A stretch of 64,000 nucleotides of DNA, from the NCBI GenBank assembly GCA_020845875.1, contig JADLEY010000009.1, positions 3,907 through 67,906 of the forward strand, given 5' to 3'. Origin of the DNA: Candidatus Nomurabacteria bacterium. GTDB lineage: Bacteria; Patescibacteriota; Minisyncoccia; Phycocordibacterales; UBA9973. Below, in pieces: positions 51,173-52,154 of this stretch. The notes under the pieces are model-generated. The model searched no databases. It had not been told where the DNA came from and saw only the letters and a program-made list of their open reading frames with translations. Numbering within the stretch: position 1 is the first letter of the stretch; the number at the start of each line of letters is the position of its first letter. A program made the translations under genes and the position numbers.

Positions 51173-51904
51173 ATGAATGCGAAATGGCTTGAGCATCTTC
51201 TAGAATACCGCGTCTCTGAGCATCGTGTTGTGGCTCTGCAGACACTTCTGCGAGAAAAGATTGCACGGCAAGCCACTGCTGCACGTCGGTACAAGAAACA
51301 ATTTGTTCCGCCGAAAGTATTGCAGGAGACAAATGAAAAGAAATTACTTCTCATTGAAGCGCGCTATGCACGCATGTACTGGAGCGCATTTGCTCGAGCA
51401 CTTCCGAAGTGGTGCGCATGGAAGGGGAGGGTGCCGCACGGTACTGATGTTGCAAACAAATTGCTTGATATCGGGTATCATACACTCTCGCTTATTCTTC
51501 AAAAGAAGTGTGAAGCACTCAATATACCGACTGAGGTTGGACTCCTTCACAGAGCACAGTCGGCAAAAGCGCATCCGCTTGTCTATGATCTCATGGAACC
51601 ATTTCGAGTGCATGTAGTAGATGAAGTACTCATGACCTTTTTCCATATGAAAAAGCATCCGATTGTGCAAGTAGATCAGATAATAGTACAAGAATTTTTG
51701 CATGAGGTGTATGCGATACTACATCGGCAGTACTATCACCGTGAGCGCCGTGTTTGTATCAGTTTTTCTTATTGGATTGATCTTGTTTTGCTCGGACTTC
51801 GAGGAGCAGTATCTGGCCAGCGTAAGTTTAAGCCACTTTGGACACCACTGCGCCACGAAACTCGGTGTAATAGAAAACCTCCGACTACAATGTCGGAGGT
51901 CTAA
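51173..51904 (+). CDS. cas1: CRISPR-associated Cas1 integrase, catalytic alpha-helical domain only (N-terminal beta-sandwich domain absent)
   Basis: LLDIGYHTLSLIL…LHRAQSAKAHPLVYDLMEPFRVHVVDEVL is the canonical Cas1 core. Catalytic E(62)/H/D are present. An in-frame stop 4 codons upstream of the ATG precludes any N-terminal extension. Confidence 0.85.
   Translation: MNAKWLEHLLEYRVSEHRVVALQTLLREKIARQATAARRYKKQFVPPKVLQETNEKKLLLIEARYARMYWSAFARALPKWCAWKGRVPHGTDVANKLLDIGYHTLSLILQKKCEALNIPTEVGLLHRAQSAKAHPLVYDLMEPFRVHVVDEVLMTFFHMKKHPIVQVDQIIVQEFLHEVYAILHRQYYHRERRVCISFSYWIDLVLLGLRGAVSGQRKFKPLWTPLRHETRCNRKPPTTMSEV
51872..51899 (-). terminator. Minus-strand hairpin terminator (cctccgac-tacaat-gtcggagg + T-tract) at the array's leader-distal end, inside the cas1 3' coding region
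   Basis: Perfect 8-bp stem preceded on the + strand by gaaaa, which is ttttc on the minus strand. Confidence 0.5.
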
Positions 51905-52154
51905 ATAAAATAATGCAGTTTCTTTAGTGGAGGTTTTGGGTCGCCGACGCCGGGGTCCCGTATTTCACGGTGCGTACCCAACCACCCAATCTCTTTAATG
52001 GAGGTTTTGGGTAAGCGTGCCCTGACTGCCCGTGATGAGCTGTGTGTACCCAACCACCCAATCTCTTTAATGGAGGTTTTGGGTTTCCTCTGGAACAGTA
52101 CAAGAAATAATGACAGTACCCAACCACCCAATCTCTTTAATGGAGGTTTTGGGT
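51903..52154 (-). CRISPR. CRISPR array: 4 repeats × 39 bp (gtacccaaccacccaatctctttaatggaggttttgggt) and 3 spacers (32/33/31 bp). The cas1-proximal repeat is degenerate. The array is inferred to be transcribed on the minus strand from the uvrC-side leader.
   Basis: Repeats at 51903-51941 (degenerate 5' half), 51974-52012, 52046-52084 and 52116-52154. Repeat termini are self-complementary (acccaa…ttgggt). Spacers are 51942-51973, 52013-52045 and 52085-52115. Confidence 0.85.

Follow-up and report, generated by a model that had tools for sequence, protein, structure and literature searches.

Type V subtypes of clustered regularly interspaced short palindromic repeat (CRISPR) systems are listed both with and without a trans-activating CRISPR RNA (tracrRNA), and the guide RNAs of Cas12b and Cas12f1 combine a long repeat:anti-repeat stem with a short one of 5–7 bp in a pseudoknot (PMC11246509). 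In described Cas12f loci, a putative tracrRNA is located between the nuclease gene and the repeats (PMC7229846). The locus analysed here belongs to a Candidatus Nomurabacteria bacterium, from the group of the candidate-phyla-radiation bacteria, and lies in a stretch of 64 kb that is referred to below, in its whole length, as the window. It comprises genes for a 440-residue Cas12f-like effector and a short Cas1, followed by a small CRISPR array, by 177 nt of non-coding DNA and by uvrC (ATG at 52356, plus strand). The initial annotation of this DNA had placed a leader at 52155–52331 and had proposed that the precursor of the CRISPR RNA (crRNA) is transcribed from the uvrC side, antisense to the cas genes. 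The promoter beside this segment is indeed present and the proposed polarity is supported by comparative sequence evidence, while the segment itself is mainly a conserved structured RNA with two anti-repeats: as judged from its sequence, it is more than a simple leader, namely a tracrRNA-like gene that joins the array head-to-tail. The functional transcript of the array is likely to be the minus strand, antisense to both the effector gene and cas1, with the structured RNA (hereafter the scaffold) as the putative tracrRNA of the Cas12f-like effector.

The elements of this predicted guide-RNA unit are, in the order of transcription and in plus-strand coordinates:

52339–52367, minus strand: sigma-70-type promoter of the guide-RNA unit, matching 10 of 12 consensus positions
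52155–52331, minus strand: tracrRNA-like structured scaffold of about 175 nt with five hairpins, recognized by conservation and compensatory changes
52265–52308: scaffold hairpin H5
52234–52247: scaffold hairpin H4
52215–52229: scaffold hairpin H3
52219–52224, minus strand: anti-repeat 1 (H3 loop GUACCC), complementary to the last 6 nt (GGGUAC) of the minus-strand repeat
52193–52212: scaffold hairpin H2
52172–52186: scaffold hairpin H1
52161–52168, minus strand: anti-repeat 2 (3' tail of the scaffold, AACCACCU), complementary to GGGUGGUU of the repeat
52116–52154, minus strand: repeat 1, exact 39-mer, adjoining the scaffold
52085–52115, minus strand: first spacer of the transcript, 31 nt, 35% G+C
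52046–52084, minus strand: repeat 2, exact 39-mer
52013–52045, minus strand: spacer, 33 nt, 61% G+C
51974–52012, minus strand: repeat 3, exact 39-mer
51942–51973, minus strand: last spacer of the transcript, 32 nt, 72% G+C
51903–51941, minus strand: shortened terminal repeat, of which the part kept (51917–51941) is the 5' part of the minus-strand repeat
51872–51899, minus strand: intrinsic terminator within the final codons of cas1, with a G+C-rich stem of 8 bp and UUUUCUAUU after it

Relatives of the locus were collected by exact-protein look-ups, and their identities are given as effector identity to the window. Loci L001–L003 (69%) share the uvrA…uvrC setting, L004 (59%) lies in another setting, without uvrC, and L020–L022 (31%) are found between uvrA and uvrC again, with the module inverted. 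L006 and L009–L010 are the window's own locus in other samples, L014 is a contig of its uvrC side, and L007/L008 encode an effector protein identical to that of the window and diverge from mid-cas1 onwards. L023, a short fragment of a 26% relative, has a compatible layout and is too short to count as a lineage. Neither cas1 nor cas2 was found in the fetched flanks of L004 or L020.

Despite effector identities of only 59–69%, the 177-nt stretch from the last repeat to uvrC can be aligned well with its counterparts in L001 and L004. All five hairpins are kept, three of them through compensatory changes: CCUGC/GCAGG is replaced by CUGUGAAU/AUUCACAG in H1, GCCG/CGGC by GCCA/UGGC in H3 and GCUCU/AGAGC by GAGGUU/AGCCUC in H4. 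The scaffold of L020 follows the same plan: its long A/U stem is followed, after a middle part, by an H3-like hairpin, two stem-loops and the tail. No Rfam family matches the scaffold region, which abuts the first repeat without a gap.

In the minus-strand repeat, GGGUAC stands directly 5' of each spacer and GGGUGGUU immediately 5' of GGGUAC, and the two anti-repeats together cover these 14 contiguous spacer-proximal nucleotides. The loop and the tail change with the repeat: in L004 the loop GUGUCCU faces the repeat end AGGACAC and the tail CCCAC faces GUGGG, and in L020 the loop UGCCCA faces UGGGCA and the tail CACCACC faces GGUGGUG. A bipartite complementarity of 6–7 bp plus 5–8 bp, as expected of a tracrRNA, thus covaries in the four lineages compared (window, L001, L004 and L020). 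A match of the loop would arise by chance with p ~0.002–0.006 per lineage, and the Watson–Crick run of the tail is uninterrupted over 7–8 bp in the window, L001 and L020 (p ~0.002–0.007). A search for a longer anti-repeat elsewhere in the window found none. Counting the pairs in a MAFFT alignment of scaffold and repeat was given up, because L020 is misplaced there by one column in the tail and is out of register in the loop.

The 3' end of the repeat is predicted from these pairings to associate with the scaffold and not with itself. The initial annotation had pointed to base pairing between the ends of the repeat and, indeed, the complementarity ACCCA/UGGGU exists; the corresponding fold, on the other hand, is no better than those of shuffled sequences (-12.7 kcal/mol, z = -1.3, 23 of 200 shuffles at least as good), nor is it conserved in register, the minus-strand repeats of L001 and L004 giving z = -0.4 and 0.0, respectively, with pairing out of register.

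The trimming of the terminal repeat matches the same 14 nt. In the window, L001 and L020 the shortened terminal repeat lacks exactly the nucleotides predicted to pair with the scaffold, and L023 probably has the same shortening at the same end. When the array is read on the minus strand no spacer follows this repeat and nothing is lost by its shortening; on the plus strand the first spacer would follow a repeat devoid of the pairing nucleotides and would be unusable. That the minus-strand reading places an intact repeat before every spacer, as proposed earlier, holds.

A second line of evidence is the arrangement of signals, since the four lineages share the order promoter, scaffold, array, shortened repeat and terminator on the strand opposite the effector gene. 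The window promoter (TTGACG-17-TATCAT; -35 at 52367–52362, -10 at 52344–52339, with TG just upstream of the -10 element) overlaps the start codon of uvrC. Its counterparts in L001 (TTGACG-17-TACTAT), L004 (TTGACA-16-TATACT, 11 of 12 positions) and L020 (TTGACA-17-TATTCT) likewise lie about 30 nt upstream of the scaffold, in aligned promoter regions, and in L004 and L020 they are the best promoter-like sites near the scaffold. Given that L004 is devoid of uvrC, the promoter belongs to the module and is not a by-product of uvrC.

At the far end, the terminator stem CCTCCGAC/GTCGGAGG (51878–51899) is G+C-rich, is followed by a U-tract on the minus strand and folds there with -18.3 kcal/mol (z = -5.5). 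The minus strand is the more stable one in three lineages (-18.3 versus -17.2 kcal/mol in the window, -13.2 versus -9.7 in L001 and -8.6 versus -6.2 in L004), and in L001 a U·G pair is present on the minus strand where the plus strand would have C·A. In L007/L008 the stem is rebuilt with other bases (CCCCCGA/TCGGGGG). An automatic terminator scan listed minus-strand sites just past the far end of the array in L001, L004 and L020; it did not list the hairpin of the window, perhaps because the flanking A/T runs were counted into the stem. Within this terminator, AAAACCTCC (51871–51879) is complementary to GGAGGTTTT of the repeat and was considered as an anti-repeat; the pairing does not covary in L001, which assigns AAAACCTCC to the terminator stem.

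The nature of the effector is also informative on polarity. The best PADLOC profile assigns it to CAS-V-F (Cas12_x1 at 7e-30, Cas12f at 2.5e-10), and an AlphaFold model built from 26 family sequences (pLDDT 88) has AsCas12f (4e-15, TM 0.56), ISDra2 TnpB, OsCas12f and SpCas12f1 as best Foldseek matches. Together, the profile and structure matches identify a miniature type V effector with a TnpB fold, a small RuvC-fold protein homologous to Cas12f and TnpB, which is recorded in one source as "transposase [Candidatus Nomurabacteria bacterium]". To our knowledge, the guide of small TnpB-fold type V effectors always follows the RNA scaffold on its 3' side. The anti-repeat duplexes adjoin the 5' end of a spacer on the minus strand only and, given the TnpB fold of the effector, the guide geometry fits this strand alone. 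The crRNA would consequently carry a 5' repeat handle and a 3' spacer, as the effector fold and the position of the anti-repeats suggest, and its expected form is …GGGUGGUUGGGUAC + spacer.

In the mechanism that we propose, the sigma-70-type promoter at 52367–52339, over the uvrC start codon, would fire leftwards and give an RNA that starts with the five-hairpin scaffold of about 175 nt (52331–52155), runs without a gap into three repeat–spacer units and the shortened repeat, and would stop at the hairpin and U-tract in the 3' end of cas1 (51899–51872). Acting as tracrRNA, the scaffold would pair through its H3 loop GUACCC and its tail AACCACCU with the last 14 nt of the repeat (GGGUGGUU + GGGUAC), so that, as in the guide RNAs of Cas12f and Cas12b, a short duplex of the pseudoknot type would immediately precede the spacer on its 5' side. 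The 440-residue effector, transcribed from its own promoter on the other strand, would bind scaffold and crRNA and target DNA. The expression of these elements, the processing of the RNA and its use by the effector are suggested by the conserved layout and the predicted pairings.

The alternative that survives best, although it appears unlikely, is that the array is read on the plus strand by read-through from cas1, the conserved region being a 3' tracrRNA or terminator cassette of the same transcript. No plus-strand terminator separates cas1 from the array in the window, H3 closes with G·U pairs on the plus strand in the window and L004, and several observations that weigh against a minus-strand transcript would be accommodated. 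The window scaffold is more stable on the plus strand (-63.3 versus -47.8 kcal/mol); it contains two plus-strand terminator-like hairpins (52234–52247 and 52280–52298); and the two variant repeats of L004 adjoin the scaffold, as expected of a trailer, an arrangement that can be read either way. Further points tell against our proposal as a whole: the junction of scaffold and first repeat shows neither a tracrRNA 3' end of its own nor a terminator, the window anti-repeats are short (6 + 8 bp), the tail duplex of L004 has only 5 bp (p ~0.15), the loop duplex of L020 is shifted by 2–3 nt, a hand-curated scaffold alignment of the four lineages folds equally on both strands (-36.7 versus -38.0 kcal/mol) and the independent lineages compared number only four. 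Scaffold folding was rejected as a means of calling the strand, given that the window favours plus and L020 folds better on minus, with the alignment and the summed energies of the individual hairpins (-195.6 versus -192.3 kcal/mol) close to neutral.

Several observations tell against plus-strand transcription. The repeat would be bound by the anti-repeats through its first 14 nt, which adjoin the preceding spacer and are 25 nt away from the following one, and we know of no TnpB or Cas12 guide RNA with such an arrangement; moreover, the first spacer would follow the repeat that lacks these nucleotides. Between the effector gene and the array, L004 and L020 have one or two strong terminators on the plus strand, with no plus-strand promoter-like site between these and the array, and in L020 a minus-strand open reading frame also intervenes. 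The nearest plus-strand promoter-like site of the window is a weak one (9 of 12 positions) inside cas1, to be compared with minus-strand sites near the scaffold in all four lineages.

A different reading concerns the function of the effector. The Cas12_x1 clade might represent an RNA-guided DNA binder, domesticated or static and tied to loci of DNA repair, and not a classical adaptive nuclease, a distinctly unlikely proposal that draws on several features. Neither a Zn-finger/TNB domain nor the canonical residues of RuvC-II and RuvC-III are present in the effector, the arrays are very small, those of L020 and its counterparts are identical across samples and without cas1, the module is kept between uvrA and uvrC at only 31% identity in either orientation, and a promoter in the first uvrC codons drives, in each case, the guide RNA or the effector. 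If this proposal were true, overlapping promoters of opposite direction would link the guide unit to uvrC, and the effector would silence its targets without cutting them. Nuclease-dead TnpB-like repressors (TldR) and Cas12m are precedents.

The residues concerned were compared in an alignment of 26 family members. The window effector has only two cysteines, CxxC…CxC occurring only in P0028, and in its model a 10-residue loop takes the place of the TNB, joining the strand 403–408 to the C-terminal helix. Of the RuvC residues, D272 is present, the invariant G358 aligns with TnpB E278 and K420 occupies the canonical third (RuvC-III) Asp position. G358 lies in a VGE/IGK motif resembling the ICIGK of Fanzor2, and D409, opposite a Glu of Fanzor2 in the alignment, may be a catalytic acid that has changed position.

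That 52155–52331 is only an integration leader for Cas1–Cas2 with a promoter or insulator, the effector using its crRNA without a tracrRNA, is quite improbable. The region abuts the first repeat as a leader would, the anti-repeats are short and some small type V effectors need no tracrRNA (PMC11246509). On the other hand, the region and the covariation of its hairpins are kept in L004 and L020, in whose fetched flanks cas1 and cas2 were not found, the loop and the tail covary with the repeat, which a leader would have no reason to do, and the repeat has no significant or conserved hairpin of the type that tracrRNA-free effectors usually recognize. The weakest alternative, a decaying remnant whose polarity has no functional meaning, is suggested by the three spacers and shortened repeat, the family arrays of 1–5 spacers, the truncated Cas1, the L020 array found unchanged in contigs of three samples with no cas1 nearby and the failure to find protospacers, and can be given very little weight in view of the perfectly identical repeats, the conservation of the whole unit (shortened repeat, promoter and terminator included) down to 31% effector identity, the different spacer content of close strains and a Cas1 with its catalytic motifs retained, which in several lineages is short and not frameshifted.

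The array itself conforms to a CRISPR array. The 39-nt repeat GTACCCAACCACCCAATCTCTTTAATGGAGGTTTTGGGT occurs in three exact copies and nowhere else in the 64 kb (none expected by chance), with a start-to-start spacing of 70–72 nt and mutually unrelated spacers of 31–33 nt, next to genes for Cas1, an effector with a CAS-V-F profile and a protein with a Cas2-like domain. The fourth, cas1-proximal copy (51917–51941) corresponds to the last 22–25 nt of the plus-strand repeat, with 3 mismatches in 25 (none expected), and the preceding 14 nt (51903–51916) bear no similarity to it. The identical 39-mers, the degenerate cas1-proximal repeat, the leftward promoter and the hairpin with its T-tract, all pointed out in the initial annotation, are thus confirmed in the sequence. 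Its estimates of spacer composition are likewise accurate, two spacers being G+C-rich (72 and 61%) and one A+T-rich (35% G+C) in a window with 48% G+C overall; the diverse foreign sources that it took from this composition are not established, as no protospacer was found by blastn of eleven spacers against phage records or by an exact-match scan of five spacers against IMG/VR, and no self-target exists in the window or the fetched loci. Without a protospacer, the side of the protospacer-adjacent motif cannot be used to determine polarity.

New spacers may enter at the scaffold-proximal repeat: the degenerate repeat is at the scaffold-distal end in the window, L001 and L020, and the variant repeats of L004 are at the scaffold-proximal end. 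A comparison of strains, suggested earlier as a way of recognizing the end that gains spacers, did reveal differences and singled out neither end. L006, a JGI contig of the same strain, has one extra spacer, AGAAGCGTTCCAAACTCTTCCAAGCACTCTTT (L006 8212–8243), between the first and second of the window, an internal difference most simply explained by a deletion. L007/L008 have a different cas1-proximal spacer and are essentially identical to L006 for 7.2 kb; between 7200 and 8167 the differences per 200 nt amount to 2, 2, 4, 7 and then 55, rising inside cas1, and this sharp divergence indicates that the array side was exchanged by recombination and not altered by acquisition. Look-ups with UvrC and Ddl did not recover the other side of the L007/L008 arrays. 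The three-spacer array of L020 (5568–5820) is base-for-base identical in L021 and L022, from three different samples, and appears to be static.

The plus strand of the locus begins with uvrB, uvrA (44843–47479) and nth (47481–48137) and continues with three protein-coding genes of the system:

48813–49334, plus strand: Cas2/PaaX_M-like protein, 173 residues, candidate Cas2
49802–51124, plus strand: Cas12f-like (TnpB-fold) effector, 440 residues, with its own promoter (49750–49777) and its own terminator (51129–51152)
51173–51904, plus strand: short Cas1, 243 residues, C-terminal catalytic domain only, E/H/D motifs kept

The effector promoter is a perfect TTGACA-16-TATAAT, and the terminator at 51129–51152 separates the effector gene from cas1; strong plus-strand terminators also lie between the effector gene and the array in L004 and L020. 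Cas1 scores 87.9 bits against TIGR00287 (cut-off 71.7), matching only positions 116–327 of the 327-position profile; it lacks the N-terminal domain and retains the catalytic motifs IEA, LLH and DLMEPFR. Since Cas1 is also short in L003 (239 residues) and L015 (267 residues), it is not a pseudogene. Residues 96–164 of the 173-residue protein match Cas2 and the Cas2-like domain of PaaX (PaaX_M), and the first 95 residues or so match nothing specific; the protein, which is conserved in L001, could be an unusual Cas2 or a regulator.

Three small minus-strand open reading frames lie between nth and the effector gene, at 48161–48397 (78 residues), ~48490–48705 (~50 residues, hydrophobic) and 49452–49685 (77 residues), two of them flanking the Cas2/PaaX_M-like gene. 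The 78- and 77-residue products match no PADLOC family. Each of the three has a terminator and a copy of a promoter box, the 15-mer TATGATTCGTCAAGA, which occurs four times in the window (48432–48446, 48739–48753, 49718–49732 and 52355–52369; 0.23 expected at up to two mismatches), all copies flanking the island between nth and uvrC. On the plus strand TATGATTCGTCAAGA reads as the first uvrC codons (MIRQ, then D or E), a match that extends over 8–9 codons (MIRQDLDKL) in L001 (5196–5206, 5901–5911 and 8489–8499). On the minus strand it forms a -35 box (AATCTTGACGAATCATA) with a -10 element 16–17 nt away, and three of the window copies would drive the small open reading frames with their own terminators. 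These copies may be duplicates of the uvrC 5' end that arose by serial insertions and were reused as promoters; a role of TATGATTCGTCAAGA as an operator was weakened by the finding that -35 contexts of the TCTTGACAAA type also precede effector genes in unrelated family loci. The third small open reading frame is missing from L001, where its promoter and terminator are still present. At 5775–5911 of L001 a promoter box is followed about 45 nt on by a hairpin and T-tract, with no open reading frame between them; this stretch would either give a very short transcript or be what remains of a deleted cassette.

The effector family is rare, matching 268 of 1.84 billion cluster representatives at E up to 1e-3. 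A scan of genome contigs returned only two loci already known, two scans of metagenome contigs (with protein patterns and with a scaffold DNA pattern) gave no further relatives, and the other exact-protein look-ups led, except for L020 and the L023 fragment, to contigs that were too short or too distant. A word-index protein search with the 26-sequence alignment added one distant member, P0029, in whose contig no repeat array was seen. Judging from the neighbouring genes, the family seems to sit among DNA-repair genes: in L020 (2597–8759) a promoter overlapping the uvrC start codon (AAATCTTGACTTTGCAT) faces the effector gene, L004 (8054–12144) adjoins a UvrD/PDDEXK helicase-nuclease, and another family relative (L025 1–156) is divergent from a gene starting MPELPEVQ, similar to fpg/mutM.

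The right strand decides the design of the crRNA, the tracrRNA and a single guide for an RNA-guided protein that, with 440 residues, is small enough to be of interest for the delivery of genome editors. The guide model offered here consists of the scaffold 52331–52155, the last 14 nt of the repeat and a spacer. In a rare clade of the candidate phyla radiation, the guide RNA would come from an antisense cassette of its own, provided with a promoter and a terminator. The locus also carries a warning for annotation: what looks like a leader beside an array can turn out to encode a tracrRNA, and a terminal repeat that seems degenerate can be conserved in a form trimmed for function.

The omega RNA of TnpB lies in sense orientation to tnpB, whose 3' end it overlaps, and has a single fixed guide. 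The locus resembles the TnpB omega/reRNA systems of IS200/IS605 in the fold of the effector (ISDra2 TnpB, TM 0.58–0.72; profile match 8e-19), in a guide placed 3' of a structured scaffold and in the predicted presence of scaffold and first guide in one transcript, and differs in that its RNA unit is antisense, separate from the gene, provided with an array of exchangeable spacers and located beside cas1. With tracrRNAs of the Cas14a-like and NanoCas type it shares the architecture of the 3' ~75 nt of the scaffold, where H2 and H1 are flanked by two repeat-complementary segments, namely the H3 loop and the tail directly upstream of the crRNA; about 100 more conserved nucleotides (H4 and H5) precede this core. 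The closest likeness is to type V-F (Cas12f/Cas14), given the 440-residue TnpB-fold effector with CAS-V-F as best profile and Cas12f as best structural matches, the long structured RNA with two anti-repeats, of which the loop forms a 6–7 bp duplex by the guide as in Cas12b and Cas12f1 (PMC11246509), and the adjacent cas1 and Cas2-like genes. The differences are an effector without Zn-finger/TNB and with Gly and Lys at the positions of the RuvC-II Glu and RuvC-III Asp, a Cas1 without its N-terminal domain, the absence of a recognizable cas4 among the open reading frames scanned and hosts from the candidate phyla radiation. In comparison with described loci (PMC7229846), the scaffold lies on the far side of the array and is continuous with the first repeat, the guide unit being inverted relative to the nuclease gene. 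The system is a type V-F variant with an inverted, self-contained guide cassette, a Zn-finger-less effector and a Cas1 reduced to its catalytic domain; its polarity is ordinary for CRISPR loci, and the recognition of a tracrRNA-like element in the presumed leader is a useful correction that does not establish a new kind of system.

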